From an uncultured delta proteobacterium (GTDB lineage Bacteria > Desulfobacterota > Binatia > Binatales > Binataceae), in NCBI GenBank assembly GCA_963842085.1, contig CAWJET010000001.1, positions 192,001 through 256,000 of the forward strand: 64,000 nt of DNA, written 5' to 3'. The position numbers were made by a program, and so were the translations under genes. Position 1 is the stretch's first letter, and each line of letters begins with the position of its first letter. The notes beneath the pieces were generated by a model that saw only the letters and a program-made list of their open reading frames with translations, searched no databases and had not been told where the DNA came from. Below are positions 18,408-50,242 of the stretch, in pieces.

Positions 18408-18858
18408 AGATTCCCTCCGGCGCCGCATCTTTCGGGCGTGCGACAGCGGCACCTTCCAGTTACTTCGCTAATCTTCGGCAAATCTCCGCCTGACCAATCG
18501 GCCAGCGGGATTCCCAGCATCCTAATATGCCAGCCGACTCGATGAAATAGCAGGCCAAAAACCCCCGCTATGCTATTAACCGACATCACCAAGGTCCCTG
18601 GCAATGGCTCGGCTACGCCGCGTCTCCACCACGCGGCTCTACGGCCGGCGCAAAATGCGTCCGGAGGATAGTCCGACATTCCGGTCCAGGTATTAGGATC
18701 GCATGGCCAACGTGCGCGCGTTCGCTGCCGCGGCGCTGGATCTGGGTTCCGCGCGACTGCTTACCCGCCTCGCCCGCTTTGTTGCGGGAGAGGCCGTGCC
18801 GGCCCTCTGCGGGCTGCCTTATCGATACGTCAGGGTTTAAATTTGGAGTAGCGACCCC

Positions 18859-24872: not shown

Positions 24873-25388
24873 TTATTCGCCGGCGAGCCGCAGCGGGCGC
24901 TCCATCCACACCACGTCCCAGTAGCGGCCGAGCTTGCGGCCGCATTCGCTGAAGACGCCGACGTCGGCGAAGCCGAACTTGCGATGCAGCCTGATCGACG
25001 CCTGGTTGGGAAGCGTGATCCCGGCCAGCAGCCGATTGATGTCCTCATTCTTGAGCGCGTCGAACAACGCCCGATACAGCATCGCCCCGATTCCGCGCCC
25101 AGTCGCATCATGCGCGCAGTAGACGGACGTCTCGGTGCTCGTGTCGTATGCTGCCTTGTCGCGAAACGGCCCGGTGCAGGCATAGCCGACGACCCGGCCG
25201 GCGTCTTCGGCGACGAACATGCGATGGCGCTTGATGCCGGCATGTTCATCGAACCATCGCGCGCGCTGCTCAACCGTCATCGGCTCGAGGTCGAACGTGA
25301 TGGGCGTGTTGACGATGTAGTAGTTGTAGATTTCCGTCAGGCGCGGCAGGTCGCCGCGCACCGCAGGCCGAATCTTTACCTCCGCCAT
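24873..25388 (-). CDS. GNAT N-acetyltransferase (phosphinothricin acetyltransferase/YncA-like)
   Basis: EIYNYYI.NTPITFD, GRGIG, PNQASIRLHRKFGF, GRKLGRYWDV. Confidence 0.9.
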   Translation of the reverse strand: MAEVKIRPAVRGDLPRLTEIYNYYIVNTPITFDLEPMTVEQRARWFDEHAGIKRHRMFVAEDAGRVVGYACTGPFRDKAAYDTSTETSVYCAHDATGRGIGAMLYRALFDALKNEDINRLLAGITLPNQASIRLHRKFGFADVGVFSECGRKLGRYWDVVWMERPLRLAGE

Positions 25389-25452
25389 GAAGCCGGTCTC
25401 CTGGTGAGAAGGTTTCGCTAGAGTCACAGGCAACGCCGGATGCAGAGTTGAA

Positions 25453-26331
25453 TCAAGCGGCCAGTCTGCTCTTCGCAAGATCGGCGAAGGTGATCAGTTC
25501 GATTCCATTTCGAACGAGCGCGTCGCGCACCCGCGGGCTGGTGAGAATCTCGACTTCGAGTTGCGCCTCGGCGGCGGGCGGGACTCCGCCGATGTCGGCC
25601 GCCGGATGGAAATAGAGTTCAGTCGTGCCGTCGCGGATTCGGTCGAGCACGCCCACGACGTAGTCCTCGCTCAAATGTCCGCTCTGATGAAGTCCGAACA
25701 GCGCGTCGGTCGAGGCGAGGCCGCGGGCTGCCATCAGGCGGGCGGTTCGGCGTGACAGGGTGCGAAAAATGATCGACTCGACGAGCTTGCGCGGCGCGTG
25801 GTCGCGGCGCAGCCGGAGCGTCGTCATCACGCGCTCGCGCGGGAGCCGGATAAACGGCACTTTGTATTCGACGGCGAGGTCAACCAGAATATCGGCGAAC
25901 AACGGATGGACGTGGAAATTCAAGTGGCCGTCGATATGATTGAGGCAGCCGACGAGCTCGAGATGCCGCTCGACTTGCGCCCGCAATTCGTCGGTCATCG
26001 CGGCGCGCATCGAGCGGTCGAAGAAATAGCGCATGCCGGCGGCGACCGGATTGTCGATGAACTCGCCGGACGCTCCCACTGCGGCGCCGAGCCGCGCGGC
26101 GTCGAGCAGACTGCGTCCGCGGCAGACGACGACGTGCAGGCCAACGTCGAGGTCGGGAATTTCGCGCGCGCTTTCGGCCGCGGCGCGCGCGGCGGGCTCC
26201 GCGACCATCAGGCTCGCGCTGCGCAAGATGCCGTCGCGACGCGCCCGCACGACGCCGGCGTTGACCTCGGGCGACAAGCCGAAATCGTCGGCGTTAACGA
26301 TCAGGCGCTTCAAACTGCGGCACCGCGACAA
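25453..26331 (-). CDS. hpnK: Hopanoid biosynthesis-associated deacetylase (ChbG/YdjC family)
   Basis: LIVNADDFG, ASLMV, VGLH, HIDGHLNFHVHP, ELYFHP; adjacent to hpn genes; start may be TTG 26313. Confidence 0.8.
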   Translation of the reverse strand: MSRCRSLKRLIVNADDFGLSPEVNAGVVRARRDGILRSASLMVAEPAARAAAESAREIPDLDVGLHVVVCRGRSLLDAARLGAAVGASGEFIDNPVAAGMRYFFDRSMRAAMTDELRAQVERHLELVGCLNHIDGHLNFHVHPLFADILVDLAVEYKVPFIRLPRERVMTTLRLRRDHAPRKLVESIIFRTLSRRTARLMAARGLASTDALFGLHQSGHLSEDYVVGVLDRIRDGTTELYFHPAADIGGVPPAAEAQLEVEILTSPRVRDALVRNGIELITFADLAKSRLAA

Positions 26332-34353: not shown

Positions 34354-36312
34354 TCAGTGCGATGCGGTCTCCGCCATCCGCTTGCGGAATCGTCCCAGCG
34401 CCATCAGCGGAAAGTAATGCGGGTACAAGTAGTAGCGAAGATAGAAGTGGTTCGGAAAACCGTTGCCGGTGGACTCCCGCTCATCCCACGCGCCCTCGTC
34501 GTTCTGCCGCTCTGAGAGCCACTGCGCGCCGCGCATCGCGGGTTCGCTGATCCCCGACTCACCCGCGATCAATCCGATCAGCGCCCACGCCGTCTGCGAC
34601 GCGGTGCTGGTCCCGCGCCCGTGCCACGCCGGGTCTTTGTCCGATAACGGGCTCTCGCCCCAGCCGCCATCCGGGTTCTGCTTCGACTTGAGCCATGCGA
34701 CCGCGCGCTTGATCCACGGCTCGTTGATATCTACGCCGATCGCGCGCAGGCCCGACAGCGCCGAAAAAGTTCCATAGATATAGTTGATGCCCCAGCGTCC
34801 CCACCAGTCGCCGGCCGGCGACTGATTTTTTTTGAGCCATTCGATCGCGCGCCTCGCCACCGGATGTTCGGTGCGATAGCCCACCGCTCCCATCATCTCG
34901 AGCACGCGCCCGGTTAGATCGGGGCACGACGGATCGGTCACCGCTTCCACGTCCGCCAGCGGCAGCTGATTGAGCCAGGTCGAATCGTTGTCAGCGTCGA
35001 ACGCGGCAAAGCCGCCGTCGCTCGATTGCATCCCCATCACCCAGTTCGCGCCGGCCCGAATCGCGCGCTCCCTGGCAGCGGCATCATCAGCCGTCGCGTC
35101 TGCCATCACCGACAGGATCACCGCCGAATCGTCCACGTCGGGATACCAGTCGTTGTAAAACTCGAAGGCCCAGCCGCCCGGCTCGAGCGCGGGCCGCTTC
35201 ACCGACCAATCGCCCTTCTTGAAAATCTGATGATCGATAAGCCATTGCGACGTTTGCTTGAGCGCCGGATGGTCGCCCGGCAATCCCGAGTCGAGCAGCG
35301 CCCGGCCCGCGAGCCCCGTATCCCAGTTGACCGAGACGCAGGGCATGTACATGTCGTAGTCATTGAAATGCCAAATCAGTTCCCGCGACGCCTCGATCGC
35401 TCTCTTCAGCACCGGATGGTCGTTGCGGTAGCCGTTGGCTTTCAGAGCCATCGCGCTCAGTAGGTAGCACGGCTCGATTCCGCCCCACGAGCCGTTCGCA
35501 TCCTGATGCTCGAGGAGCCATTCTTCGGTGTGGCGCAGCGCGCGCGCGCGCAGCGATTTTATTTTGTGCCGATCGTACAAGCGCAGCGCCTTGTCGGCGA
35601 GGTTCAGGGCGTTGCGCAGCGACAGCAATTTGTTTCCGCGCGGCTGCTTGAACTTCGTGAAATGCGGCGGCTCGATGTACAGCTCGAGTATCCCGCGCTG
35701 GTAGTCGATCTTTTTTTCCGGACGCGCCGCCTGCAGCATCATCAGTCCCATCAGCGTTCCGCGCGCCCATGAACCCAGCTCATAGATGTTGAACGGGAAC
35801 CAGTTCGGAAAAAGCGCGATCTCGACCGGCAGCGCGGCGGTCGCCTCCCAGGTTATCTGCCCCATCGCGGCCAGATAAAAGCGCGCGAGCGTGCCGCACT
35901 TGACGATGCCGCCCTTCGACAGGATCCAGCGCCGGGCCGCAGCCAGCGGCTCGTCACCCGCGCGCATGCCGGTGAGCTTGAGCGCAAAGTAACTTTCGAT
36001 CGTCGTCGACAGATACCCCTCGCCGCCCTGGTAAAGCGCCCAGCTTCCGTCCGGACTCTGAGTATCCAGCAGATGCTTCCTCAGGCGCGCCTCGAGTTCG
36101 ACGTCAACCGTGTCCATAAAGTGGTTGAAGATGATGAACTCGGCGTTCATCTCCGCGTTCGCCTCGAGCGGCGCGTGCCAGTAGCCCTCGGGCTTCTGCA
36201 GCGCCAGCAGCGCGCGCTGCGCGCGATCGACGGTGTAATCAATCCTGGCGACGAACTCGTCATGCGGCGACATCGCAATCGCGGCGTTTCCAATTTCAAT
36301 TGCCTGACTCAT
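34354..36312 (-). CDS. shc: Squalene-hopene cyclase
   Basis: QW repeats (QKPEGYW, QSPDGSW, QNPDGGWGE), YPDVDD, WWGRWGINYIYGT. Confidence 0.96.
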   Translation of the reverse strand: MSQAIEIGNAAIAMSPHDEFVARIDYTVDRAQRALLALQKPEGYWHAPLEANAEMNAEFIIFNHFMDTVDVELEARLRKHLLDTQSPDGSWALYQGGEGYLSTTIESYFALKLTGMRAGDEPLAAARRWILSKGGIVKCGTLARFYLAAMGQITWEATAALPVEIALFPNWFPFNIYELGSWARGTLMGLMMLQAARPEKKIDYQRGILELYIEPPHFTKFKQPRGNKLLSLRNALNLADKALRLYDRHKIKSLRARALRHTEEWLLEHQDANGSWGGIEPCYLLSAMALKANGYRNDHPVLKRAIEASRELIWHFNDYDMYMPCVSVNWDTGLAGRALLDSGLPGDHPALKQTSQWLIDHQIFKKGDWSVKRPALEPGGWAFEFYNDWYPDVDDSAVILSVMADATADDAAARERAIRAGANWVMGMQSSDGGFAAFDADNDSTWLNQLPLADVEAVTDPSCPDLTGRVLEMMGAVGYRTEHPVARRAIEWLKKNQSPAGDWWGRWGINYIYGTFSALSGLRAIGVDINEPWIKRAVAWLKSKQNPDGGWGESPLSDKDPAWHGRGTSTASQTAWALIGLIAGESGISEPAMRGAQWLSERQNDEGAWDERESTGNGFPNHFYLRYYLYPHYFPLMALGRFRKRMAETASH

Positions 36313-38467: not shown

Positions 38468-39472
38468 TCACGCCACGTAATGCCGCACCATGCGCCACGA
38501 GTCCTTGAGATTCTTGCCGAACTCGAGCGCCACGGTGCCTTCGAATCCCGAATGCAGCTTGCAGTCGCGACAGCGGAAATCCTGCTTGGTGCGATAGTAT
38601 TCCCAGTCCGTCGCCGCATGCATCTCGTCGAGCGTCTTGTAATGCCCGTTGGTGATCAGGTAGCACGGCCCCTTCCATCCTTGCGGATTGCGCGTCACCG
38701 TAGTCCACGGACTGCACTGCATCTCGCGCTTGCCGACCAGGTAGTCCAGGTAGATCGGCGTGTTGATTATCTTGTAGTCGTTCGCCATGTCGCGAACCTT
38801 GATGAACTTGGCCGGCATCTCCTCTTTCTTCAGATACTCTTCGTCGTTCTGCAGCACCTGGTAGTGATAGCCGGGGCTCAGCAGCATCCCGTCGACGCCG
38901 AGGCTCGTCAGGTACTTGATCATGTTCTCGAGCTCTTCGCCGCTGGTCTCGCGGAAGACCGTCGTGTTGGTCTGCACGCGGTAGCCCTTGTCCTTCAGCA
39001 TCTTGATCATCCTGACGACGATGTCGAAATGCCCCTGCCGGTCGGTCACGCGATCGTTGGTCTCGCGCATCCCGTCCAGGTGCAGGTTGAAGCTGAGATA
39101 GGGGCTCGGCCCCACCTGCTTGACGAAGCGCTCGAGCAGGATCGCGTTGGTGCAGATCATCACGTGACGCTTCTGATCCTCGATCAACCCGCGCGTCAGC
39201 GCCGCGATGTGCTTGTACATCAGCGGCTCGCCGCCGCAGATCGACACAATCGGCGCACCCGCCTCCTCGGCCGAGTGCAGCGCCTCGTCCAGCGGCATCA
39301 TGTCGCGAATCGTGTCCTTGTACTCGACGATTCGCCCGCATCCGATACACGCCAGGTTGCACGCATGCAGCGGCTCGAGCATCAGCACCAGCGGAAAATA
39401 TTTCTCGCCCGCCCGCTTCTTCGCGCGGATGTAGCGGCCCAGGTCGATCATCTGTCTCAGCGGAATGCGCAT
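38468..39472 (-). CDS. hpnH: Adenosylhopane synthase, radical SAM
   Basis: FPLVLMLEPLHACNLACIGCGRI, GGEPL, CSPW..TRNPQGWKGPCYL. Confidence 0.92.
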   Translation of the reverse strand: MRIPLRQMIDLGRYIRAKKRAGEKYFPLVLMLEPLHACNLACIGCGRIVEYKDTIRDMMPLDEALHSAEEAGAPIVSICGGEPLMYKHIAALTRGLIEDQKRHVMICTNAILLERFVKQVGPSPYLSFNLHLDGMRETNDRVTDRQGHFDIVVRMIKMLKDKGYRVQTNTTVFRETSGEELENMIKYLTSLGVDGMLLSPGYHYQVLQNDEEYLKKEEMPAKFIKVRDMANDYKIINTPIYLDYLVGKREMQCSPWTTVTRNPQGWKGPCYLITNGHYKTLDEMHAATDWEYYRTKQDFRCRDCKLHSGFEGTVALEFGKNLKDSWRMVRHYVA

Positions 39473-39512
39473 GCTCGTGCGTTCTCCTGCAAGTCGAAGG
39501 TGAAGAAAAAAG

Positions 39513-40172
39513 TCAGGCGGACGGTGCGCCGCCCTCCGATGTAGATGTCCCCGACGGACCGAACAACCACTCACCCACCATCGCCACCGCCCCTTCGGGG
39601 TCAATCGCGTTCGCACCCATAAACAGGTATTCGATCAGCAATCCGTTCAGCGCCGACAGCAGGAACGCCGCCGCCGATTCCGGCGCCGTCCGCCGCGTGC
39701 AGATTCCCTTTTGCTGCGCGCTGGCGATCAGCTCGACCAGCATCGCGCGATATCCGCTGTAGAGCTTGAGCACCTGGTCGTTGAGGCTTTCGGAGAGCTT
39801 CTGGTCGTGGAGCATCTGCGCCAGGAAGAAACGGACCGAGCTGGCGTTGTCGCGCACAAACGACAGGTACGACTCGACCAGCTTCTGGATCTGCGCGCGC
39901 TCGTCCATCACCGACGCTTCTTCGGCAAAGTCGATAAAGTACGGCTCGAGCAGCCGGTTCAGCACCGCCACGAACAACTCTTCCTTGGTTTTGAAGTGCC
40001 AGAAAATAAGCGCCTTGCTGACTCGCGCCTCGCGCGCCACGTCCGACATCGACGTCTCATGGAACCCGCGATTGGCAAATAGCTGCATCGCAGCCTTAAG
40101 GATTTCGTCGCGCGAATCCTGCGATTGCACCCTCGCCTCCGACGCGCCCACTTTGACCTGCGATACGCCCAT
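39513..40172 (-). CDS. TetR/AcrR family transcriptional regulator
   Basis: ILKAAMQLFANRGFHETSMSDVA..VSKALIFWHFKTKEELF; alternative start 40214. Confidence 0.92.
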   Translation of the reverse strand: MGVSQVKVGASEARVQSQDSRDEILKAAMQLFANRGFHETSMSDVAREARVSKALIFWHFKTKEELFVAVLNRLLEPYFIDFAEEASVMDERAQIQKLVESYLSFVRDNASSVRFFLAQMLHDQKLSESLNDQVLKLYSGYRAMLVELIASAQQKGICTRRTAPESAAAFLLSALNGLLIEYLFMGANAIDPEGAVAMVGEWLFGPSGTSTSEGGAPSA

Positions 40173-40255
40173 ATTTCGGCCCCGACGCCCCGCTCTGCTC
40201 CTGTCGTCGCCCATGGCAACGTGAACCGCAGCCTGTTAGTCGAGCCGCCATCTTC

Positions 40256-40401: not shown

Positions 40402-41433
40402 TTAGTGGATATTTATCTCGATACCGCTGTTGATAGACGATTGCCGCGCCGCCTGGATTAGCATTAGTGCAACACGCGCCTGGGCCAGGTTGCGCTTGGA
40501 TGCGGGCGAATTGGTTCCTTCGGAGACAGCTCCCTCGAACTCCTCTGCCACGCCGCCGAACCACGCCGAATGGTACGAGTCGTCGGCCATGTCCGCTATG
40601 GACAGGTCCTCAGCTTTCCCTGACCGATCAGTACACGTCACCCGATCCCCTTCAATCTCGATAGATGCGTGCTCTCCGTAGATGAGCGCAGAGGTCCGCC
40701 GCACTGGAGCGCGCCACGAAAGATGCGCCCGACAGACTGCTCCGTTCCCGAACCTGATTCGCACGTCGGCCACATCGTCAACGTTCGCGCCCGCCGGCGA
40801 CTCGAGCCGCGCTGAAACCGACACCGGCGGGTCGCCACCCAGCAGCCAATACATGAGGTAGAAGACGTGCCATCCGTGATCGATAAGAATCCCCCCACCC
40901 GACGCCGACGACGCACGCCACTCGCCACCGCTGCCGCCCGCGCCCGCAGGTTCGGTGCGCAGCCGATCGAGCGACATGAAGCGAATCGCGCCCAGCCTCC
41001 CGTCTTCGATCGCCGTGCGCGCCGCCGCATACGCAGGCGCGTACTTCCAGTTGTGCACGCACATCAGCACCCGCCGCTTCTCCGCTGCCAGCGCCGCCAG
41101 TTCATCGAATTCTCCAAGCGAAAGCGCAAGCGGCTTCTCGACCAGCACATGCGTCCCAGCCAGCAGCGCCGCGCGCGCTGCCCCGTGATGCAACCCCGGA
41201 GGACTGGCAACATCCACAAAATCCGGAGCCTCACCGTCGAGCATCAGCTCGAGGTCGTCATACACCCGAACATTCTTGATCAGCCGGATAGCCTCATGCC
41301 GCCGCTCGGAAACCGGATCGTGAATAGCTCCGATCGCAACATTCTCCCGCGTGCGCCATCCAGCCAGATGCGCCCGCGCGGCAACCTCGCCAAATCCCGA
41401 AATAGCGCCTCGCAGTTTTGTCCGACTAGCCAT
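40402..41433 (-). CDS. Gfo/Idh/MocA family oxidoreductase
   Basis: GFGEVA, VASPPGLH, HVLVEKPLA, GGGILIDHGWH. Confidence 0.92.
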   Translation of the reverse strand: MASRTKLRGAISGFGEVAARAHLAGWRTRENVAIGAIHDPVSERRHEAIRLIKNVRVYDDLELMLDGEAPDFVDVASPPGLHHGAARAALLAGTHVLVEKPLALSLGEFDELAALAAEKRRVLMCVHNWKYAPAYAAARTAIEDGRLGAIRFMSLDRLRTEPAGAGGSGGEWRASSASGGGILIDHGWHVFYLMYWLLGGDPPVSVSARLESPAGANVDDVADVRIRFGNGAVCRAHLSWRAPVRRTSALIYGEHASIEIEGDRVTCTDRSGKAEDLSIADMADDSYHSAWFGGVAEEFEGAVSEGTNSPASKRNLAQARVALMLIQAARQSSINSGIEINIH

Positions 41434-41631
41434 CAGCGCCGCTAAGTTTCAGCCAAACGTCCTTCGCCCGCAACCCGGACCGCAGCAGCAAGTCTGCGGT
41501 GCAGCGGAAACATGGCATCGACGCGGCAACAATTCCGCCTGGTTCATGCGTCAATCCTCAGAGATTCCCGGTGGCAGCGCTCTTGCTCTCTCCCCCAATG
41601 AACGCCCAACAACAGGGAGGACAGGCGAATA

Positions 41632-41871
41632 ATGTCCGCATGGATCATAATCGGACTTATCTCAGGATGGCTCGCCGGAAAAATCCTAAACGGCAACGGC
41701 TACGGCATGATGGCTGACATCGGGCTCGGCCTGCTCGGCGGCGTGATCGGAGGAATGATCTTCGCGGTGCTGGGCGTGCGCGCGCACAACTTCATCGGCG
41801 CCGTCCTGATGTCCACGGCAGGCGCAACCGCGTTGGTAGTCGCAACGAGAATAATCCGCGACGAGATCTGA
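41632..41871 (+). CDS. GlsB/YeaQ/YmgE family stress-response membrane protein
   Basis: WIIIGLISGWLAGKI..G.G...DI.LGLLGGVIGG. Confidence 0.9.
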   Translation: MSAWIIIGLISGWLAGKILNGNGYGMMADIGLGLLGGVIGGMIFAVLGVRAHNFIGAVLMSTAGATALVVATRIIRDEI

Positions 41872-41894
41872 GAGCGGCCCCTATCCGCATCAAG

Positions 41895-41993
41895 TGTCAT
41901 TCAGAGCAGGGTCCGCCGAGCGAAGAATCCCGGCAGCAGTGCAGAGGCGGGCGTGCATTCCGGGATTCTTCGCCGCAGCGGCTCTGAATGACA
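41895..41993. repeat. REP-like repeat family C, inverted doublet (99 bp)
   Basis: TGTCATTCAGAGC/GCTCTGAATGACA outer arms and CGAAGAATCCCGG/CCGGGATTCTTCG inner arms; between convergent genes. Confidence 0.85.
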
Positions 41994-42004
41994 AACAGAA
42001 CTGA

Positions 42005-42856
42005 CTAAACGTACAGCGCCGCGATCTTCTTGAGCGTCCCTTCCGCACTCTCGAACGTCAGGTCGCCCAGGCCCGCGACGAACCGGCCCGCTCCTGCTTC
42101 CGCAAACTCTTTCAGCCCGTCCTGTACCTTCGCGCGATCGCCGCGGATACCGCCCATGATCGTGATGTCCAGATCCGCGAAATTCCTGCCGACTGCGGCG
42201 CACTCGCGCTTGAGTTCATCAACCCGCGTCTTCAATTGCGCCGCGTTCAACGCGATCGGACACCATCCGTCTGCCCATTTCGCCACGCGCTTGAGCGCGT
42301 TCTTGTCGAGGCTGCCGATCAACACTGGCGGCCCCGACTTCTGCGCCGGCTTCGGCAACGACTTCACCGGTGGAAATTTGACGTACTTGCCCTCGAACGA
42401 CGATTGGTCCTCGGTCCACAACTTGCGCATCGCGGCGACTATCTCGGCCGTTTCGCTCCATCGACGCGGGAAATCGACGCCGAACAAATCGCTCTCCTCG
42501 CGCAGCCATCCGGCGCCGATCCCGAACAGTACGCGGCCGCCCGAGTATGCGTCCAACGTCGCGAACTGCTTGGCGAGCGCGAGCGGTTCATGCTCAGGCA
42601 CCAGGCAGATTCCAGTGGCGAGTTTCAGCTTCTTGGTGACGGCGGCCGCCATGCTGAGCGTGATCATCTGATCGGCCATCGTGAAGTATGTCGGCGGAAT
42701 CGGACCTCCGGTGGGGAACTGCTGCTTGGGATTCGCGGGCATCGCCGGATGCTCCGGCACCCAGATCGATTCGAAGCCGAGCGATTCCGCGACACGCGCA
42801 AATTCCGCGGGATGAGCATTCCTGCCGGTGAACGGCGTCAGCAATCCAATTTTCAT
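42005..42856 (-). CDS. LLM class (luciferase-like) probable F420-dependent oxidoreductase
   Basis: AESLGFESIWVPEH, LAKQFATLD.YSGGR..FGIGAGWLREE, PKPAQ..GPP. Confidence 0.9.
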   Translation of the reverse strand: MKIGLLTPFTGRNAHPAEFARVAESLGFESIWVPEHPAMPANPKQQFPTGGPIPPTYFTMADQMITLSMAAAVTKKLKLATGICLVPEHEPLALAKQFATLDAYSGGRVLFGIGAGWLREESDLFGVDFPRRWSETAEIVAAMRKLWTEDQSSFEGKYVKFPPVKSLPKPAQKSGPPVLIGSLDKNALKRVAKWADGWCPIALNAAQLKTRVDELKRECAAVGRNFADLDITIMGGIRGDRAKVQDGLKEFAEAGAGRFVAGLGDLTFESAEGTLKKIAALYV

Positions 42857-42865
42857 TTTGCCCTC

Positions 42866-42936
42866 ATTAAGGTGCAGGGGCTGCCCCTGCCCAAGGAAGT
42901 GTGAACCCCCACGGCGGGGTCTCACATTCAATTAAG
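42866..42936. repeat. Repeat family A, shorter divergent copy 3
   Basis: GGTGCAGGGG-CTG-CCCCTGC..AAGGAAG..GTGAACCCCC..GGGGTCTCACATTCAATTAAG; flanked by ATTAAG at 42866 and 42931. Confidence 0.75.
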
Positions 42937-42955
42937 TGATCTACCCTTCCCCCCG

Positions 42956-43429
42956 CTACCACCCGAAAAAATCTTTCGCCGCCACAAACTTCGCGACGCC
43001 TGCTGCTTCGCCCGCGAGCCGGTCGACCTCCTGATCGCCGACCATCGTCGACGATGCCAGATTTACGCCATACAGGTTCGCCAGCTCCGTGATCATTCCA
43101 CCCTTGGGCTTGCGGCATTGGCAATTGTCGTCGTCCGTATGCGGACAGACTTGCCACCCGGTCAGGATATCGCCGAGCTGATGGTCGAGCTGGGCGAGCG
43201 CCGCTTCTACTTTTTCCGCCTTGAGGCGCCCGCGCCCGATCCCTGCCTGGTTGGTCACGACGAACATCAGATGGTTATGCAACGGCCGAAGCTTCTCGGC
43301 CACGCCCGGCAGCAGTTCGATTACGACGTTGCCGTCGGCGTCGAGCGGAAGCTCGCGCGTGTCGTTGAGTTTTACCAGCGTGCCGCCGAGATCGAAGAAC
43401 AGCGCCGCGTTGCCGTTCGGATTGGTCAT
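42956..43429 (-). CDS. HAD-IIIA hydrolase, GmhB/HisB-N-like
   Basis: FDLGGTL, VTNQAGIGRG, CPH..CQCRKP, MVGD. Confidence 0.85.
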   Translation of the reverse strand: MTNPNGNAALFFDLGGTLVKLNDTRELPLDADGNVVIELLPGVAEKLRPLHNHLMFVVTNQAGIGRGRLKAEKVEAALAQLDHQLGDILTGWQVCPHTDDDNCQCRKPKGGMITELANLYGVNLASSTMVGDQEVDRLAGEAAGVAKFVAAKDFFGW

Positions 43430-43446
43430 CAAAAAAAGATTTTCGC

Positions 43447-44811
43447 TTATGCGTGGCGCCAGTCAACGTGGTCGCGAACGTGCGCGAACACTTCGTCCAT
43501 TATCTCGACGCCGGCTTCGGCCTGCGCCTCGGTAATAACCAGCGACGGATTGATTCGAATCTTGGGAAAGTAGCCCATGATCACCAGCCCGCGCTTCAGG
43601 CATTCGGCGAAGATCAGCTCGGTGACTTTCTTGCCGAGCAGTTCCTTGGTCTCGAGATCGCGCACCAGCTCGACGCCTATCAGCAGTCCCTTGCCGCGGA
43701 CGTCGCCAATGAACTCGTATTTTTCCTTGAGCTGCACCAGCCGCGACAGCATCATCGCGCCGACCTTGCGCGAGTTCTCGACCAGATGCTGTCGCTCGAT
43801 CGCACCGATCGTTTCCGCCACGGCGACCGCCGCCAGCGGATTTCCGCCGTAGCTCGACGACGACGCGCTCGGCTTCCCGAACGGCTCCGCCTTGCCCAAC
43901 TCGTCGCTCAGCAGCACGCCCGAAACCGGGAAGCCGGAGCCCATTCCCTTGCCGACCGTGACGATATCGGGGCAGACGCCGCTATGTTCGACGCCCCACC
44001 ATTTTCCGGTCCGCCCGAAGCCGGTGATCATTTCGTCGGCAATCAGAAGCGCGCCGAAATCCTTGGCCACCGACTTGACCGCGGGCATCCAGTCGTCGGG
44101 CGGAATCACGTTGCCCGCCGTACCCTGCATCGGCTCGGCAACGATCGCCGCGAGCGCACCGCTGGAACTCATCTTGATCTGCTGGCGCGCGAAATCGACG
44201 CAGTAAAGCCCGCAGTCGGGATACTTCAACTTGAACGGGCATCGATAACAGTCCGCGTACGGCACTGTGTACTGCCCGGCCTGCAACGGACCGTAGCCTT
44301 GCTTCGATTCGTCGCCGATAAGTCCGAGCACGCCGCCGGTCTTGCCATGGAACCCGCCCCAGAAGCTGACGGCTTCATACTTGCCGGTCGCGGAACGCGC
44401 CAGCCGGAGCGCGGCTTCGACCGCCTCGGCGCCCCCGCTATATAGATGTGCGCGGTTGAGTCCGGCGGGCGCGACTTCGGCCAGCGCCTTGAACGCGGCC
44501 GCGCGCTCCCTGGTCGCGAACGTGCCGACTATAAGCCGCGACGCCTGGTTCGCGAGGGCCTGCGCCAATCCCGGATGCGCATGGCCGAGGCTGGCGACCG
44601 CGACGCCGGCGAAAAAATCGACGTAGGTGTTGCCGTCGGCGTCGGTCAGCGTCGCGCCCTCGCCGTGGTCGAACGCGAGGCCGGCGAGCAGAGAAATTCG
44701 CTGGCGGCCCGGGGCGATATATTTTTGTTCGAGGTCGAAAATCTCCTTCGACCTGGGTCCTGGAACTCGCGTCTTGATGGCCGGAAGCTTTCCGTTGCTG
44801 GAGGTCTTCAA
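43447..44811 (-). CDS. Class III PLP-dependent aminotransferase
   Basis: GGAEAVEAA, FHGKT, EPMQG, IADEMITGFGRTG, VGKGMGSG, SSYGGNP. Confidence 0.93.
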   Translation of the reverse strand: MKTSSNGKLPAIKTRVPGPRSKEIFDLEQKYIAPGRQRISLLAGLAFDHGEGATLTDADGNTYVDFFAGVAVASLGHAHPGLAQALANQASRLIVGTFATRERAAAFKALAEVAPAGLNRAHLYSGGAEAVEAALRLARSATGKYEAVSFWGGFHGKTGGVLGLIGDESKQGYGPLQAGQYTVPYADCYRCPFKLKYPDCGLYCVDFARQQIKMSSSGALAAIVAEPMQGTAGNVIPPDDWMPAVKSVAKDFGALLIADEMITGFGRTGKWWGVEHSGVCPDIVTVGKGMGSGFPVSGVLLSDELGKAEPFGKPSASSSSYGGNPLAAVAVAETIGAIERQHLVENSRKVGAMMLSRLVQLKEKYEFIGDVRGKGLLIGVELVRDLETKELLGKKVTELIFAECLKRGLVIMGYFPKIRINPSLVITEAQAEAGVEIMDEVFAHVRDHVDWRHA

Positions 44812-45674
44812 TTGATAGGGGTCCGATTCCTTGTTTGAATTTCCGGCGCGATTCTAGCGCGGGCGGCGAGCAGACTCATCGCGCGGTGTGCGATCGCACG
44901 CGCGGCAGATTCGCGCACCCGGCTGTAACTGGGCCAGTCGTTAAAATCGATAATCGCAAAACGATCGCCACTCAAGACCGCGTCTCCGCCCCATGCCTCC
45001 AGGCCGAGCGCCCCGGCTGCCGCGAAAGCCGCCTCCGACAACGCGCGCACAGCGGCTTCGGCGACTTGCTCGTCGTCCGGATGCACGCTGAAATGCGAAC
45101 CGCCGCCGACGCCGTAAAACTTGACCACCCGGCCGACGACTTCCTGCTGCACGTAGGCGAAGCGGATTCGGCGCCGCGCGAAATCGGCGAGAATCGATTC
45201 GACGCCCGCGCGATCGTCCGCCCGCTGCACGTCCTCGGGCGCGAGCGCGTGCAAGTCACCGCGCTTGACGAACACGCCCGCCGACAGATCGAGGCCCGTG
45301 AGCTTGCGCGCGTCGAGCGGCTCGTCCGCCGCGATCAGCACGCCCGGGGGCGTCGGCACGCCGGCCTGCTCGAGGCCGGCGGCGAGCAGGTCGCGGTAGC
45401 AGTTGCGAATCGAGAGCGCGGAGTTAAGCGCGACCGCACCCGCCTGCTCGACTTCGGCCAGCCGCTTGAGCGCCCGCGGTCCCTGGCACATCGGCAGCAC
45501 GAGATCGGCGCGCGGCGGTGCGGCAGCGGCGAAGCTGACCGCGTCGATTGCCTGGATCCCGACACCTTCGCCCTTCAGCTCCGCCAGGGTGGCATCTAGG
45601 ATCGCAGCGTCGGCCTCGACCTTGCCCGGTGAAAAGTCAGGCTCCCGATAAATTCCCAAAGCTCGATAGCTCAT
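44808..45674 (-). CDS. ATP-grasp-like protein of unknown function
   Basis: FVKRGD, VQQEVVG..VKFYGV, GLEAWGGDAV, IIDFNDWPSY. Confidence 0.7.
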   Translation of the reverse strand: MSYRALGIYREPDFSPGKVEADAAILDATLAELKGEGVGIQAIDAVSFAAAAPPRADLVLPMCQGPRALKRLAEVEQAGAVALNSALSIRNCYRDLLAAGLEQAGVPTPPGVLIAADEPLDARKLTGLDLSAGVFVKRGDLHALAPEDVQRADDRAGVESILADFARRRIRFAYVQQEVVGRVVKFYGVGGGSHFSVHPDDEQVAEAAVRALSEAAFAAAGALGLEAWGGDAVLSGDRFAIIDFNDWPSYSRVRESAARAIAHRAMSLLAARARIAPEIQTRNRTPIN

Positions 45675-46396
45675 GGCATCTTCCGTATTGCGACGCGCGC
45701 GGCGTCGAGGTCCGACGCTTCATCCACATCGATCGATCCTTCGATCTCGATCGCGTCCAGCCGCATCCCGCGTTCGATGATCATCGCGAGGAAGCGGCGG
45801 AGCGCGTCGAGTCCGGTGCGGCGCGCGTCAGCGGCGTAGTCGAAAACTCTGGACGACAGGAAATAGAGCCCTGCCGTCACCATAGAAGTCTGACGGTTGC
45901 CCAGCCGCAGGATCAACCCATTCTCTGTTACATCGGCGTAAAGCGGCTTGGCCTCGCCGCGCCATCGCGTGACGGCGAGCACACCGGCCAGATTTTTGTC
46001 GCCACAATCCTCGATTTTCCGCCGCGACTCATTAACAAAACGCGCCAATTCCGCCTGCGGAATTACAGCGTCCACCGTCGCCGCGATAAACCATCCCGGC
46101 TGCAGCACCTCGCCAAGCGCCAGCATCGTTTCCATCGAATTGGCGGTGTCGCGAACGACGAGCCTGACCGACGGCGGAACCGCGAGCGCCATTTCGCCCG
46201 CGATACGCGCCGTCTCGGAGTTGATCACCGCGACGACCGAGTCGGCGCCCGCCTCCAGCAGCGCGCGCGCCTGCCGCGAGAGCATCGCCTCGCCGCCGAG
46301 CTTGACGAGCGGCTTGGGAATATCGTCGCGCGTCGAGACGCGCAGCCGGTCGCCGCGGCCGGCGGCAATAATCGCTCCTTGCAATCCCGTCACCAT
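45671..46396 (-). CDS. Nucleotidyltransferase (NTP transferase family)
   Basis: IIAAGRGDRL..PKPLV, DVDEASD. Confidence 0.85.
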   Translation of the reverse strand: MVTGLQGAIIAAGRGDRLRVSTRDDIPKPLVKLGGEAMLSRQARALLEAGADSVVAVINSETARIAGEMALAVPPSVRLVVRDTANSMETMLALGEVLQPGWFIAATVDAVIPQAELARFVNESRRKIEDCGDKNLAGVLAVTRWRGEAKPLYADVTENGLILRLGNRQTSMVTAGLYFLSSRVFDYAADARRTGLDALRRFLAMIIERGMRLDAIEIEGSIDVDEASDLDAARVAIRKMP

Positions 46397-47118
46397 TGGA
46401 TTTGCGCAACCTCGTCGATCGATCGGATCGTGATGTCGGCCACACTCTCATCGTCGGCGTGTTGCGGGCTGGTGCTCAACCAGACCGTGCGCATTCCAAG
46501 TTTGCGCGCGGGTGCGCAATCCTTGGCGAGCGAATCGCCGATCATCGCGATCGATTCGGGCGCACATTGTAATTTTTTCAAAGCGGCTTCGAAGATGCCG
46601 GCCTCGGGTTTGAAAATTCCGACGCGCGAAGAGTCGGTCACCACCGCGAAGAACCGATCCATCTTCGCCTCTTCCAGGACGCGGTCGAGATTTCCGTAGA
46701 AGTTCGAGACGATGCCCAGCTTGAAGCGGCTTCTGAGCGGACCGACGACCTCGCGGCTGTGCGCGAGACCCACCGACGTCTCGCGGACAAAGGAGTTCGT
46801 GACACCCTCGACGAATCGATGGCGTCCGGCGGCGCCGGAATCGTCGAGCATCGCGCGAAGCGGGTCCGGCCCACTTTTCCGCAGGTATTCGAATTGATGG
46901 CCGACGAGGAATCGCGCCAGGTCCGTCATCCCGAAGCGCCCCACAACCCTCGTTGCGCCGTAGCCGATTCGCGTCGCGTGCTCGAAGGCCGGGTCGAGCT
47001 CGGCGCGCGAAATTCCGATGCCGACAGCACGGTAGCCGGCGAGGAACCGATCGAGCCAATGCGCAGGCCCGTCGAGCGTGCCGCCGAAATCGAATAGCAG
47101 AGCGGTGACCGTGGCCAT
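46390..47118 (-). CDS. HAD family hydrolase
   Basis: FDFGGTLD, IVSNFYGN, KPEAGIF, MIGDS..KD. Confidence 0.88.
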   Translation of the reverse strand: MATVTALLFDFGGTLDGPAHWLDRFLAGYRAVGIGISRAELDPAFEHATRIGYGATRVVGRFGMTDLARFLVGHQFEYLRKSGPDPLRAMLDDSGAAGRHRFVEGVTNSFVRETSVGLAHSREVVGPLRSRFKLGIVSNFYGNLDRVLEEAKMDRFFAVVTDSSRVGIFKPEAGIFEAALKKLQCAPESIAMIGDSLAKDCAPARKLGMRTVWLSTSPQHADDESVADITIRSIDEVAQIQW

Positions 47119-47363
47119 GAAACGGCCAGTTTACCAGTCGCGGTGAGCAGCCTCTAGTTCAGGCTCGATCAACATGGCTTAATTGAAAGCAGAGCGATCT
47201 CGGAGGCAATGTGCTTCAAAGAACCGATGAAAAACGCTTTATACAACAGCCGAACTCATAATTGAGGGCCGAAGTTAGTAGCAAGGCTACTTCCGCTAGG
47301 GTTACTGCTGTGTTACGGTGACGCGGATCGCAGACGACGGGGAAACCGGGTTTTAATATAAGA

Positions 47364-48551
47364 TTGGTGATCGAAACTGCTCTAATCGCTGCACCCGACC
47401 GCGCCAGCAACGCGGTCTTCGGCCGTCCGCTGTTAGAGCGGCTGATGATTAATTGCGAGCGCGCCGGGATTAAACGCTTTGTCGTCGCGGCGCCGCGCGC
47501 GCAGTATGCAGAAGTCGCGCGCGCGATGGGCCGGTACAAAGATAGCGACACGGTCTCGATGGTAGAATCGTTGGCTGAGATTCTGAACCATCGGAATGCG
47601 CAGGAATTAGGCATCGATCCGTCGTCGCCCTGCGTGTTCTTTTCGGGAAACCTGGTATTTGCAAAGTCGCACCTGGCGCGAATCCTCGACGCCCACGCCT
47701 CCAATCCGAAGTCGGTACACCGGGCAGTCAGCACCGACGGTGACCGGGGCGGCGAAATCGCGACCGGCCCGGTCGGCGAGCTTCTGAAGAGTGGGGGAAT
47801 ATCGAACACGGTGGCGGCGCCTGCCCCGAGCCTGCTGCCGTTCGCGTTGAACGGACGGCCCGAGGATCGCGAGGAAGCGGAACTGCGGCTGGCGAAATCG
47901 GTTCGCGAGGAATCGGCGCACAAGGACGCGCCGATGGCGCGATGGGTAGACCGGCGGATTTCGTGGCGCATCAGCTACTGGCTCGCAGTGCATACGCGCG
48001 TCACGCCGAACATGGTGACGGTCGCCAACACAATGTTAGGGCTGTCGTGCGCGTGGATGTTCTCGGTTCCTAACTACTGGATGCGGCTGTTCACGGCGAT
48101 TTTCTTTTTGATCTCGATAACGATCGATGGCGTCGATGGCGAACTGGCGCGGCTCAAAATGGTCGAGAGCGAGTTCGGCGGCACGCTCGACGTGGTCACC
48201 GACAATATTGTGCACGTGGCGGTGTTCGTCGGACTGCTGGTCGGATGCTACCGCGTCGAGCACAGTCGCGCTTACCTGTACCTGATTCCGATCCTGCTCG
48301 GCGGATTTGCGGCCTGCGCTTACGCCACGTGGCGCGCCTTCAAGGTAAAGGGCAAGCAGGCGGCACAATGGCTGGACAAAATCGATCGATGGAGCGGGCG
48401 CGATTTCGCCTACCTGCTCGTGGTATTGGCCTTAATCAATCGGCTAGAGTACTTCGCCTGGGGAACGGCATTCGGTACTTACGTGTTTGCCCTGGTGCTG
48501 ATATGGATTACCGGCCGGACCGCATCGTCAATGACGCCTGAGAGCCTGTAG
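47364..48551 (+). CDS. CDP-alcohol phosphotransferase with degenerate N-terminal NTP-transferase-like domain
   Basis: TPNMVT; signature DGVDGELARLKMVESEFGGTLDVVTD; several TMs; N-terminal FGRPLLERL..AGIKRFVV. Confidence 0.85.
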   Translation: MVIETALIAAPDRASNAVFGRPLLERLMINCERAGIKRFVVAAPRAQYAEVARAMGRYKDSDTVSMVESLAEILNHRNAQELGIDPSSPCVFFSGNLVFAKSHLARILDAHASNPKSVHRAVSTDGDRGGEIATGPVGELLKSGGISNTVAAPAPSLLPFALNGRPEDREEAELRLAKSVREESAHKDAPMARWVDRRISWRISYWLAVHTRVTPNMVTVANTMLGLSCAWMFSVPNYWMRLFTAIFFLISITIDGVDGELARLKMVESEFGGTLDVVTDNIVHVAVFVGLLVGCYRVEHSRAYLYLIPILLGGFAACAYATWRAFKVKGKQAAQWLDKIDRWSGRDFAYLLVVLALINRLEYFAWGTAFGTYVFALVLIWITGRTASSMTPESL

Positions 48552-48583
48552 GAAGGAACCGCGGCCTTGCAGGCGGAGGAAGT

Positions 48584-49915
48584 ATGAACGGCAAGAAGCC
48601 CCGAATTCTGTTGGTGCAACCGACGACCGTCCATCTCGACGGCACCCCGCACAAGACGCGCTGGCGGCTGATCATGGGGCTGATGATTCCGCTGATGGCG
48701 GGACTGACGCCTGACGAATACGACGTGACGCTGTGCGACGAGCGCCTCGAGGACATCAACTTCGACGGCGGATGGGACCTGGTCGGCATGACCACGACCA
48801 TCGGCGCGTCGCTGCGCGCGTACCAGCTCGGCGACGAGTTCCGTAAACGCGGGATCCCGGTCGTGTTCGGCGGATTCCATGCGACGCTGCAGACCGAAGA
48901 GGCGCTGCATCATTGCGACGCGGTCGTGCAAGGCGAGGCCGACCTGGTGTGGCCCGAACTGCTGCAGGACTGGCGCGACGGCAAGCTCAAGCACATTTAC
49001 AAGGCCGACAAGCTGCACGACCTGAAGAACCTGCCACGCCCGCGCCACGAGCTGCTCAAGCTCAATCGCTACCTGTTCAAAGCGGTGCCGGTGCAGGCGA
49101 GCCGCGGATGCCCCTATCGATGTTCGTTCTGCGAGATTCCTGTGTTCTACGAGGGCGCCTATCGGACGCGGCCGATCGAGGACATCGTCGAGGAGATCAA
49201 GCAGGTCATGAAGGTGACCGGCTTCAAGCGCTTTCAGTTCATCGACGATCAGATCACCGGCAAGCACAAGTTCGCGCGCGAGTTGTTCAAGGCGCTCGAA
49301 CCGCTCAACATCCGCTTCTCGTGCCTGTGGACGATCAACTCGAATCACGACGATGATTTGCTCGAGCTTGCGGCCAAGGCGGGCATCTTCCACGTCAACA
49401 TCGGAGTGGAATCGATCAGCCAGGAAAGCCTGCTGTCGATGAACAAGATTCAGAATCACGCCGGGCAGTACAAGAAGCTGCTCAAGAAGCTCGAAAAATA
49501 CGGGATCTACTACTCGCTCAACTTCCTGTTCGGGCTGGAAGAGGATCATCCGGGAATTTTCGACGACACACTGAAGTTCCTGCATGAGGTCAAGGCGCCC
49601 GAGGCCTTCTTCAACACGGTGACGCCGCGCGTCGGCACGCCGATGCGCACGCAGCTCGAGAACGAGGGCCGCGTGATAATCCCCGACGCCGACCTCTACA
49701 CCAACAACTTCCGTTGCATGTTCGTGCCCAAGAACATGTCGCCGCAGGAAGTCGAGGAAGGCGTGTGGCGCTGCACCAAGGAGTTCTACTCGCTCAAGTC
49801 GATGTTCAAGCGGCTGCTGATGCCGCCGGGAAAGTTCACCTGGCAAGGACTGACTGAGAACATGCTCTTCTACTGGGGCGCGAAGCGGCAAATCGATCCG
49901 GTTGATTACTATTAG
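48584..49915 (+). CDS. Cobalamin-binding radical SAM protein (uncharacterised)
   Basis: B12-binding domain (DLVGMT, VVFGGFHAT, VQGEAD), SRGCPYRCSFC, FIDD, IGVES. Confidence 0.9.
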   Translation: MNGKKPRILLVQPTTVHLDGTPHKTRWRLIMGLMIPLMAGLTPDEYDVTLCDERLEDINFDGGWDLVGMTTTIGASLRAYQLGDEFRKRGIPVVFGGFHATLQTEEALHHCDAVVQGEADLVWPELLQDWRDGKLKHIYKADKLHDLKNLPRPRHELLKLNRYLFKAVPVQASRGCPYRCSFCEIPVFYEGAYRTRPIEDIVEEIKQVMKVTGFKRFQFIDDQITGKHKFARELFKALEPLNIRFSCLWTINSNHDDDLLELAAKAGIFHVNIGVESISQESLLSMNKIQNHAGQYKKLLKKLEKYGIYYSLNFLFGLEEDHPGIFDDTLKFLHEVKAPEAFFNTVTPRVGTPMRTQLENEGRVIIPDADLYTNNFRCMFVPKNMSPQEVEEGVWRCTKEFYSLKSMFKRLLMPPGKFTWQGLTENMLFYWGAKRQIDPVDYY

Positions 49916-49927
49916 GCCAGCCCGGAT

Positions 49928-50242
49928 TTGATCCTAAAGACTCTCGCGGTGCTGGTGCTTGCCGCGGTGCTCGAGGTGGGCGGCGATGCGCTGGTCCGGA
50001 TAGGGCTGCATACCTACGGCTACCCGCTTGCAGCAGGCGCGTTCGCGCTTTTCGCCTACGGCATCCTGGTCAATCAAGGCGGCGTCGATTTCAATCGCCT
50101 GATGGGAATCTACATCGCAGTTTTCTTCGTAGTGTCGCAGGCGATCTCACTCATTCTCTTCAAGCAGGTCCCCGACGATAGAATCCTGCTCGGCGGCGGC
50201 TTCATCGTAGCCGGCGGCCTGGTGATTCTGCTGATGACGTGA
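49928..50242 (+). CDS. Small multi-TM membrane protein (SMR/YnfA-like)
   Basis: AAVLEVGGDALVR, four hydrophobic segments, FNRLMGIYIAVFF. Confidence 0.75.
   Translation: MILKTLAVLVLAAVLEVGGDALVRIGLHTYGYPLAAGAFALFAYGILVNQGGVDFNRLMGIYIAVFFVVSQAISLILFKQVPDDRILLGGGFIVAGGLVILLMT

Follow-up and report, generated by a model that had tools for sequence, protein, structure and literature searches.

A gene cluster beside a hopanoid locus in the genome of a soil bacterium of the Binataceae encodes, in our best reading, head-group chemistry of the cytidine diphosphate (CDP)-inositol type, extended by oxidation and transamination. The cluster lies in a 64-kb window (the whole stretch of DNA that was analysed, positions 192,001 to 256,000 of contig CAWJET010000001.1), which sits in a 4.93-Mb genome of two contigs. 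As a whole, we favour a modular pathway that builds a CDP-aminocyclitol head group, with a bacteriohopanepolyol as the favoured acceptor in this organism, and we give this reading a probability of roughly 40%. Its parts are not equally firm: a role in making the head group of a membrane lipid is probable, an inositol-derived aminocyclitol as that head group is mildly favoured, and a hopanoid as the acceptor in this lineage is a tentative assignment. The genes of the cluster, followed by the elements next to it, are listed below (aa, amino acids; ORF, open reading frame).

46390-47118, minus strand: HAD-IA-like protein, first gene of the operon (Pfam Hydrolase/HAD_2)
45671-46396, minus strand: MobA/IspD-like nucleotidyltransferase (Pfam NTP_transf_3 and NTP_transferase)
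44808-45674, minus strand: ATP-grasp protein of 288 aa, assigned from a structure model and without a Pfam match
43447-44811, minus strand: class III (omega-type) aminotransferase (Pfam Aminotran_3, 315 bits)
42956-43432, minus strand: HAD-IIIA protein, histidinol-phosphatase/GmhB-like (TIGR01656, 88.7 bits; cut-off 84)
42005-42931, minus strand: F420-dependent LLM (luciferase-like) oxidoreductase, closing the operon (TIGR03619, 245 bits; cut-off 167)
40402-41433, minus strand: Gfo/Idh/MocA dehydrogenase (Pfam)
47119-47363, no strand: divergent intergenic spacer of 245 bp between both operons
47364-48551, plus strand: CDP-alcohol phosphotransferase of 395 aa, AF2299/DIPPS subfamily (Pfam CDP-OH_P_transf at residues 213-368)
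48584-49915, plus strand: B12-binding radical SAM enzyme of an unnamed family (Pfam Radical_SAM and B12-binding)
41632-41871, plus strand: hydrophobic 79-aa ORF between the dehydrogenase gene and the minus-strand operon
39513-40214, minus strand: TetR gene between the dehydrogenase gene and HpnH, abutting HpnH
38468-39616, minus strand: HpnH (adenosylhopene transferase), a context gene outside the cluster (TIGR03470, 378 bits; cut-off 225)

The minus-strand operon runs from 47118 to 42005 with successive gene junctions of -7, -4, -4, +14 and +24 bp, so that the HAD-IA and nucleotidyltransferase genes overlap by 7 bp, and the nucleotidyltransferase and ATP-grasp genes, like the ATP-grasp and aminotransferase genes, by 4 bp. 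The first-pass annotation of this DNA had described a tightly packed operon running from the HAD-IA gene to the GmhB-like gene, divergent from the CDP-alcohol phosphotransferase and B12 radical SAM genes on the plus strand, and the ORFs and domains bear out both statements; of the operon itself it gave five genes correctly and missed the sixth, the F420-type oxidoreductase. It was also right to see the dehydrogenase gene enclosed by the operon on one side and by the TetR gene next to the hopanoid locus on the other, and overlooked the 79-aa ORF, which by eye resembles a GlsB/YeaQ/YmgE-type membrane protein. Because this plus-strand ORF intervenes, the dehydrogenase gene is not co-transcribed with the operon. 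A long inverted repeat follows the ORF at about 41900-42000. No consensus promoter was found in the 245-bp spacer, and the promoter and terminator scan did not rise above chance level.

The arrangement of the genes is not due to chance. A scan of species genomes with the ATP-grasp protein gave at least 595 relatives in 600 matched stretches; the best 80 loci, many of which end at contig edges, were kept and searched with the window proteins (tblastn, E<=1e-8, alignment over half of the query or more). The ATP-grasp gene is present in all 80, and is accompanied by the HAD-IA gene in 72, the nucleotidyltransferase gene in 71, the aminotransferase gene in 52 (46-83% identity), the dehydrogenase gene in 35, the CDP-alcohol phosphotransferase gene in 23, the radical SAM gene in 19 and the gene for inositol-1-phosphate synthase (MIPS) in 17; the HAD-IIIA gene was found in 15 loci, all Binataceae-type, the LLM oxidoreductase gene in five, hpnH in two and shc (squalene-hopene cyclase) in one. 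These loci span at least six phyla, and their record titles name Binataceae, Bacteroidota, Ignavibacteriota, Gemmatimonadota, Verrucomicrobiota, Syntrophobacteraceae, Polyangiaceae and Elusimicrobia. A seven-gene block recurs in 18 Binataceae-type loci (ATP-grasp in 18, HAD-IA, nucleotidyltransferase and aminotransferase in 17 each, CDP-alcohol phosphotransferase in 16, HAD-IIIA and radical SAM in 15 each), with the gaps mostly at contig ends.

Gene fusions point the same way. Seven of 11 long proteins scanned join the nucleotidyltransferase to the ATP-grasp protein, one of 802 aa (P0178) joins the HAD-like protein to both, and one of 700 aa (P0246) joins the ATP-grasp protein to a CDP-alcohol phosphotransferase. 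The HAD-like protein, the nucleotidyltransferase and the ATP-grasp protein form the core, which the fusions tie to the phosphotransferase, and together with the co-occurrence across the 80 loci they demonstrate that the genes behave as one module. The window represents a subtype of this module that has a class III aminotransferase and a Gfo/Idh/MocA dehydrogenase. One further locus (L106, G088:C8) holds two ATP-grasp copies 6 kb apart with a paralogue of the B12 radical SAM gene between them, one copy accompanied by the core genes only and the other by aminotransferase and dehydrogenase genes as well.

To place the module, its inositol connections were surveyed. The genome search for ino1 that had been suggested earlier found a single MIPS gene, 76 kb upstream of the window, and the neighbourhoods of MIPS and of HpnL-like genes in this genome contain no further cluster genes. 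In a phylum sample of 151 genomes, 16 of which carry the ATP-grasp gene, MIPS was counted with PF01658; a search by PF07994 at 1e-30 misses the short MIPS type. MIPS occurs in 13 of the 16 carriers, the other three genomes being 62-85% complete, and in five of the 16 it is no more than 4 kb away from the ATP-grasp gene.

The likeness to inositol-lipid clusters of Bacteroidetes, which the first-pass annotation had named, is real. A Bacteroides locus has the order TetR, nucleotidyltransferase, ATP-grasp, CDP-alcohol phosphotransferase, LPG_synthase_TM, HAD, MIPS, DUF4833 and DUF5686, and the best matches of its nucleotidyltransferase and HAD protein in the genome studied here are the window genes (83 and 105 bits). 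This Bacteroides (Phocaeicola) vulgatus-type cluster shares with the window a homologous HAD-like protein with DxGGT, a nucleotidyltransferase and an ATP-grasp protein, and a CDP-alcohol phosphotransferase is also present; it differs in having neither aminotransferase nor dehydrogenase and no linked hopanoid genes, in its short "type B" transferase (24% identity over 148 residues to that of the window), and in having MIPS alongside, whereas MIPS is 76 kb distant in our genome. The Bacteroides locus agrees with the "alternative" inositol-lipid cluster proposed by Heaver et al. (2022; PMC9246714), in which genes for a nucleotidyltransferase, a HAD hydrolase and a phosphatidyltransferase stand close to MIPS and have lysyl-phosphatidylglycerol-synthase-like and carboxypeptidase-regulatory-like genes as neighbours; the authors state that the functions of the cluster are unconfirmed, and their main text names no ATP-grasp gene. 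In Rhodothermus marinus, IPCT and BEPIS form CDP-inositol and transfer it to a lipid alcohol (cited in PMC4587543). This system shares CDP-inositol activation and a CDP-alcohol phosphotransferase acting on a lipid alcohol with the predicted pathway, and MIPS is in the Rhodothermus operon; the account cited describes no ATP-grasp, HAD-like, aminotransferase or dehydrogenase genes. The combination of genes, for which the first pass knew of no described pathway, is not wholly new to the literature: its CDP-inositol logic is published for Rhodothermus and proposed for Bacteroides. Our literature search (supplements excepted) yielded no paper characterising this cluster or an inosamine lipid, none combining inosamine, lipid and headgroup, and no member of the family with a biochemical test.

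Membership of the 395-aa transferase in the CDP-alcohol phosphotransferase family is borne out by its sequence, as the motif D255xxD258G259xxA262R263...G272xxxD276xxxD280 is intact in the membrane domain and invariant in 20 aligned orthologues, and the Pfam CDP-OH_P_transf score is 53 bits against a cut-off of 22. In profile searches against the PDB it matched AF2299 (8e-29), IPCT/DIPPS (3.5e-19) and phosphatidylinositol-phosphate (PIP) synthase (6e-12), and the nearest of these solved relatives use soluble CDP-alcohols. With IPCT/DIPPS and AF2299 (PDB 4mnd, 4o6m) it has in common the juxtamembrane helix, the catalytic motif and a cytoplasmic N-terminal domain. In the window protein this domain, of about 200 residues, is conserved ("type A"), which confirms the TTG start of the gene; unlike in these relatives, it bears no detectable nucleotidyltransferase signature, and it gave no Pfam or PDB sequence match. 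A further difference is the genomic context of the gene, which suggests lipids. The best NCBIfam match is the IPCT/DIPPS model NF041135 at 76.7 bits, far under the cut-off of 580, and an assignment to IPCT/DIPPS was rejected on these sub-cut-off scores and on the failure to detect a fused cytidylyltransferase domain. A canonical PIP synthase was not found in the genome (best match 56 bits, cut-off 170), with the window transferase as the second-best match.

For the nucleotidyltransferase we propose a putative CTP:(amino)inositol-phosphate cytidylyltransferase (CTP, cytidine triphosphate), with the nucleotide likewise a prediction. The window aminotransferase and dehydrogenase are the top own-genome matches of their cluster counterparts at two loci of other phyla, L028 and L040 (489 and 399 bits for the aminotransferase, with runners-up at 205 and 187; 169 and 157 bits for the dehydrogenase, with runners-up at 55 and 82). 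In those other phyla the orthologous dehydrogenase gene comes directly after the aminotransferase gene, and it is through this own-genome best match that the detached dehydrogenase of the window belongs to the system. Its top NCBIfam match, IolG, reaches 73 bits, far under the cut-off of 355. The dehydrogenase may act as an inositol dehydrogenase, and the aminotransferase would then aminate a keto-inositol. The idea, already put forward in the first pass, that these two enzymes together turn a hydroxyl group into an amine fits the survey, in which both accompany the core and many clusters contain MIPS. The aminotransferase was not equated with HpnO; in one genome with the cluster (G112) a separate class III aminotransferase, 32% identical to a cluster aminotransferase, lies 1.4 kb from shc. 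Alongside the F420-dependent oxidoreductase of the operon, the genome encodes CofH (451 bits).

The 288-aa ATP-grasp protein has no match in Pfam or NCBIfam, and since phmmer against the PDB found none either, a profile search was needed; its family comprises 866 clusters at 50% identity. An AlphaFold2 model built on an alignment of 83 homologues, with a predicted local distance difference test score of 95.7, adopts a three-domain ATP-grasp fold, closest to RimK (4iwx; Z 21.9, root-mean-square deviation 3.2, 255 residues aligned) and then to LysX/ArgX (Z 21.5), Ddl (Z 20.8) and ITPK1 (Z 19.0), and so upholds the ATP-grasp-like call made earlier from the sequence. A Foldseek search with the model agrees with this fold, its top matches being Ddl, and a search of the ESM Atlas returned unnamed clusters only, plus one with RimK on 16% of its members. 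The family profile matched PsnB (3e-8), ITPK4 (1e-6), RimK (7e-6) and ITPK1 (4e-5) in the PDB, the two ITPK matches covering the last 50-75 residues only. There the C-terminal liDlNDWPSF aligns with VDLNYLPSF of ITPK4 and IDINAFPGY of ITPK1, with D-x-N in common, where RimK and PsnB show E-x-N. The motif and the ITPK matches hint at kinase chemistry, short of proof, and the protein is a candidate kinase for inositol, inosamine or the phosphates of either.

We infer the following sequence of events, in which every substrate, the order of the steps and the acceptor are predictions. Inositol phosphate from the MIPS of the genome would be oxidised by the Gfo/Idh/MocA dehydrogenase and converted by the class III aminotransferase to an amino-deoxy-inositol (inosamine); the ATP-grasp protein, as an ITPK-like kinase, would set the phosphate needed for activation, and the nucleotidyltransferase would yield the CDP-activated aminocyclitol, whose aminocyclitol phosphate the AF2299/DIPPS-like phosphotransferase would place on the hydroxyl group of a membrane lipid. 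The acceptor would be set by the lineage-specific transferase, and in this lineage a bacteriohopanepolyol such as bacteriohopanetetrol (BHT) is favoured, giving an N- and P-containing composite hopanoid. Genes for handling lipids are neighbours of the cluster in several groups, with MlaE, an ABC ATPase and MlaD inside it in Ignavibacteriota, MlaC and an outer-membrane efflux protein in Desulfoferrobacter, and LPG_synthase_TM/HpnL-like proteins elsewhere. Put as a structure, which we hold to be less likely than not, the product would be a zwitterionic "hopanoid phospholipid" of a class undescribed so far, BHT carrying aminodeoxyinositol phosphate through a phosphodiester, the same head group going onto ceramide or glycerolipids where shc was not found. 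The BHT would be 3-methylated, since HpnR is present; for the unmethylated compound our own arithmetic predicts C41H74NO11P, with [M+H]+ near 788.51.

The hopanoid locus of the window comprises HpnR, HpnK, HpnA, hpnC/D/E-type genes, dxr, shc (34354-36312), a polyprenyl synthase gene and HpnH. HpnR, the hopanoid C-3 methylase (16896-18452, minus strand), scores 856 bits against a cut-off of 650, and the organism is predicted to make 3-methylhopanoids. The window hpnH is the only copy in the genome. Elsewhere the genome has a second shc, and the search for hpnI and hpnJ suggested in the first pass located both, side by side, outside the window. No cluster gene matches an hpn family model above its cut-off.

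Six loci from families other than the Binataceae have hpnH or hpnJ immediately beside the cluster. In one genome (G078) hpnK-hpnI-hpnJ (759 bits) is divergent from hpnA (515)-hpnH (514)-HAD-nucleotidyltransferase-ATP-grasp-aminotransferase-dehydrogenase, followed by a 402-aa ORF and an HpnL-like gene, and a second (G112) likewise has hpnA-hpnH with the core. At both loci (L112, G078:C77; L111, G112:C1) hpnA-hpnH and the whole cluster are on one strand, with overlapping frames in L112. In a third (G033) the order is ispH-hpnH (532 bits)-HAD and so on to dehydrogenase-DIPPS-like-HpnL-like-TolC-HpnN-like, the HpnN-like transporter scoring 533 bits, under its cut-off of 752. The flanking hpnH is the sole genome copy in G033 and G078 and the sole copy above the cut-off in G112, where a second match has 77 bits. 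In Desulfoferrobacter suflitae and two Syntrophobacteraceae metagenome-assembled genomes (L028, L081 and L082), the gene just upstream of the cluster, in the same orientation, is HpnJ (739-753 bits), which overlaps the HAD gene by 13 bp in L028. If the window, L021 and L026 are included, hpn genes and the cluster meet at three or more distinct junctions.

The co-occurrence of the cluster with shc was assessed in the phylum sample and in carrier genomes outside the Binataceae. In the former, shc is present in 13 of the 16 carriers and 21 of the 135 non-carriers, and the three shc-less carriers are incomplete genomes. The latter test covered 5 + 50 carrier genomes, leaving out seven loci and the 18 Binataceae-type loci, and found shc in 3/5 and 12/50, i.e. 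in 15/55; one of the 12 positives is the unpublished genome G198. By a motif scan, 14 of the 15 tested non-Binataceae loci with a type A transferase come from shc-positive genomes, and none of the 15 loci with type B only does; the scan left out the short ambiguous ORFs of L036, L054, L061 and L107, and its pattern missed the Pfam-confirmed transferases of L046, L052 and L058. The cluster thus resembles the hopanoid side-chain genes (hpnH, hpnI/J/K, HpnO) in its linkage to hpnH, hpnA, hpnJ, HpnL-like and HpnN-like genes, and the predicted pathway, like that of the BHT cyclitol ether, finishes with an amine-bearing cyclitol on a lipid. It differs in the predicted linkage, a phosphodiester where BHT cyclitol has an ether, and in that the genome has its own HpnJ, HpnI and HpnK elsewhere. 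The hopanoid link is real and not universal.

Several findings weigh against the pathway as we propose it. shc was not found in 40 of the 55 carrier genomes outside the Binataceae, among them carriers of the aminotransferase subtype from Gemmatimonadota and Ignavibacteriota, and in none of the tested Gemmatimonadota, Ignavibacteriota and Bacteroidota genomes, so hopanoids cannot be the general acceptor. Flanking by hpn genes is limited to six of the 24 non-Binataceae loci from shc-positive genomes, and in a quick tree of the ATP-grasp proteins all hpn-flanked loci fall in one clade. In that tree the shc and transferase-type labels follow few deep clades, the starred branches forcing at least three changes in shc, and the correlations with shc and with transferase type therefore rest on few independent events. 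A type A locus in Verrucomicrobiota has a BioF/serine-palmitoyltransferase-like gene and a sphingolipid desaturase gene as neighbours. MIPS is common in the phylum regardless of the cluster (79 of 135 non-carriers; 92 of 151 overall), so that only its linkage is informative. The nucleotidyltransferase, judged by sequence, is not specifically IPCT-like, scoring 31.3 bits with NF041135 against the cut-off of 580, and among solved structures HddC and MurU come closest to it (E about 2e-5). By its fold the ATP-grasp protein could be either a kinase or a ligase; RimK, LysX and Ddl outscore ITPK1. To our knowledge no phosphorus-containing bacteriohopanepolyol is known, and the parts of the bacteriohopanepolyol and inositol literature covered by our search describe none.

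The two HAD-like proteins, which the first-pass annotation took for phosphatases, fit that role poorly. Canonical HAD phosphatases have motif I as D-x-D-x-T/V, with the second aspartate (Asp+2) as general acid/base. Both proteins match HAD fold families overall (Pfam/NCBIfam), but the HAD-IA-like protein has FDFGGTLD (D-x-G-G-T), in which Asp+2 is missing, 75 of 78 orthologues across phyla having DxGGT too, and the HAD-IIIA-like protein has D-L-G-G-T, its 14 orthologues showing DxAGT (10), DxGGT (three) or DxVGT (one) and none Asp+2. This systematic absence means that neither should be called a plain phosphatase, and simple phosphatase steps are doubtful, which also weakens the scheme.

Nor does the B12 radical SAM enzyme, proposed at first as a tailoring enzyme, find support outside the Binataceae. 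Within that family its gene is co-operonic with the transferase gene, and linkage to the cluster is seen only there; orthologues in other families (45-53% identity) stand in unrelated contexts, beside LarC and HIT genes or beside methyltransferase and MarC genes, so that its standing as a conserved pathway member is unsupported and its membership doubtful. The protein is 88-92% identical among Binataceae, while neighbouring proteins are 48-70% identical, and it has relatives at 52-57% in Geobacter-type, Nitrospirota and Elusimicrobia records. Identity with HpnJ or HpnR was rejected (82 bits against a cut-off of 578 and 49 bits against 650). A trio of LarC (Ni insertion), radical SAM and HIT genes is conserved at L108 (G112:C10:2943-4274) and L107 (G078:C85), and holds the closest relatives of the window radical SAM protein in those genomes.

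Much of this evidence bears on a different acceptor. The same chemistry could act on diacylglycerol, dialkylglycerol or ceramide to give an (amino)inositol phospholipid or phosphoceramide, the proximity to hpn genes then reflecting co-regulated envelope lipids and not a shared molecule; we regard this as possible, if on the unlikely side. It would account for the 40 of 55 carriers without detected shc and for the sphingolipid-type genes at the Verrucomicrobiota locus, and the core shares ancestry with the Bacteroides-type cluster put forward as the source of phosphatidylinositol and phosphatidylinositol-dihydroceramide (PMC9246714). Sphingobacterium, which carries the core, is listed among inositol-lipid bacteria, and the published BEPIS reaction is the transfer of CDP-inositol to dialkylglycerol (listed and cited, respectively, in PMC4587543). 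Set against this are the position of the cluster within hpn operons of several families, with overlapping frames, the different transferase type of shc-positive lineages, and the enrichment of carriers among the shc-positive genomes of the phylum. The hopanoid head-group idea of the first pass thus gains from synteny in other families and loses, as a hopanoid pathway as such, from the presence of the core in shc-less lineages; the survey of shc and hpnH that it called for is divided in the same way, with six loci flanked by hpnH or hpnJ on one side and the shc-less majority of carriers on the other.

A soluble phosphodiester, i.e. a compatible solute akin to di-myo-inositol phosphate made by DIPPS-like synthesis and finished by a HAD phosphatase, is very improbable. 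AF2299 and IPCT/DIPPS are the closest solved relatives of the transferase, the IPCT/DIPPS model is its best NCBIfam match and two HAD-like genes are present, but the 76.7 bits fall far short of the cut-off of 580, the HAD-like proteins are without the canonical Asp+2, the neighbours elsewhere are of lipid-transport or flippase-like type (Mla, HpnL-like, HpnN-like), and the carriers are, by record titles, mesophiles of soil, gut and sediment. Least probable of all is the decoration of a surface glycan, lipopolysaccharide or capsule with a phospho-aminocyclitol or other amino-alcohol phosphate, in which the ATP-grasp protein would be an amide ligase. The logic of aminotransferase, ATP-grasp ligase and HAD phosphatase is known from Campylobacter capsule amidation, and the best structural matches of the ATP-grasp protein are the ligases RimK, LysX and Ddl. 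Capsule changes have also been seen in an inositol-deficient mutant (Heaver et al., PMC9246714). However, the annotated clusters showed no genes for glycosyltransferases or for polysaccharide export, and the ATP-grasp gene is kept in 28 of the 80 loci without a detected aminotransferase gene, so its substrate need not be that amine.

The family is large, reaching from gut Bacteroidota to soil Gemmatimonadota, Verrucomicrobiota and Binataceae. Solving its pathway would explain how the "alternative" inositol lipids of Bacteroides arise and would define the roles of an unnamed ATP-grasp family and of the HAD subfamily without Asp+2, and from the aminotransferase subtype one would expect inositol lipids that bear an amine. 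Should the acceptor be a hopanoid, the product would be a new class of N- and P-containing biomarkers, and roles would be suggested for hopanoid-associated genes such as those of the HpnL-like proteins.

Some minor observations were made along the way. A hydrophobic 104-aa ORF (49928-50242, plus strand) 3' of the radical SAM gene may not be a gene; it is without a Pfam or NCBIfam match and without a counterpart in the 80 related loci. In the ATP-grasp tree, L051, labelled "[Ruminococcus] lactaris", groups with Muribaculaceae, and L066, labelled "uncultured Bifidobacterium sp.", with Verrucomicrobiota; both bins are probably mislabelled or contaminated. The G078 and G112 genomes belong to the same phylum and are small (1.7-1.8 Mb), and loci L112 and L108 have a GC content of 36-38%. 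In the hopanoid locus of the window, a GNAT acetyltransferase gene (24873-25478, minus strand) overlaps the end of HpnK, and its product resembles arsinothricin/phosphinothricin N-acetyltransferases at 141 bits, below the cut-off of 210.

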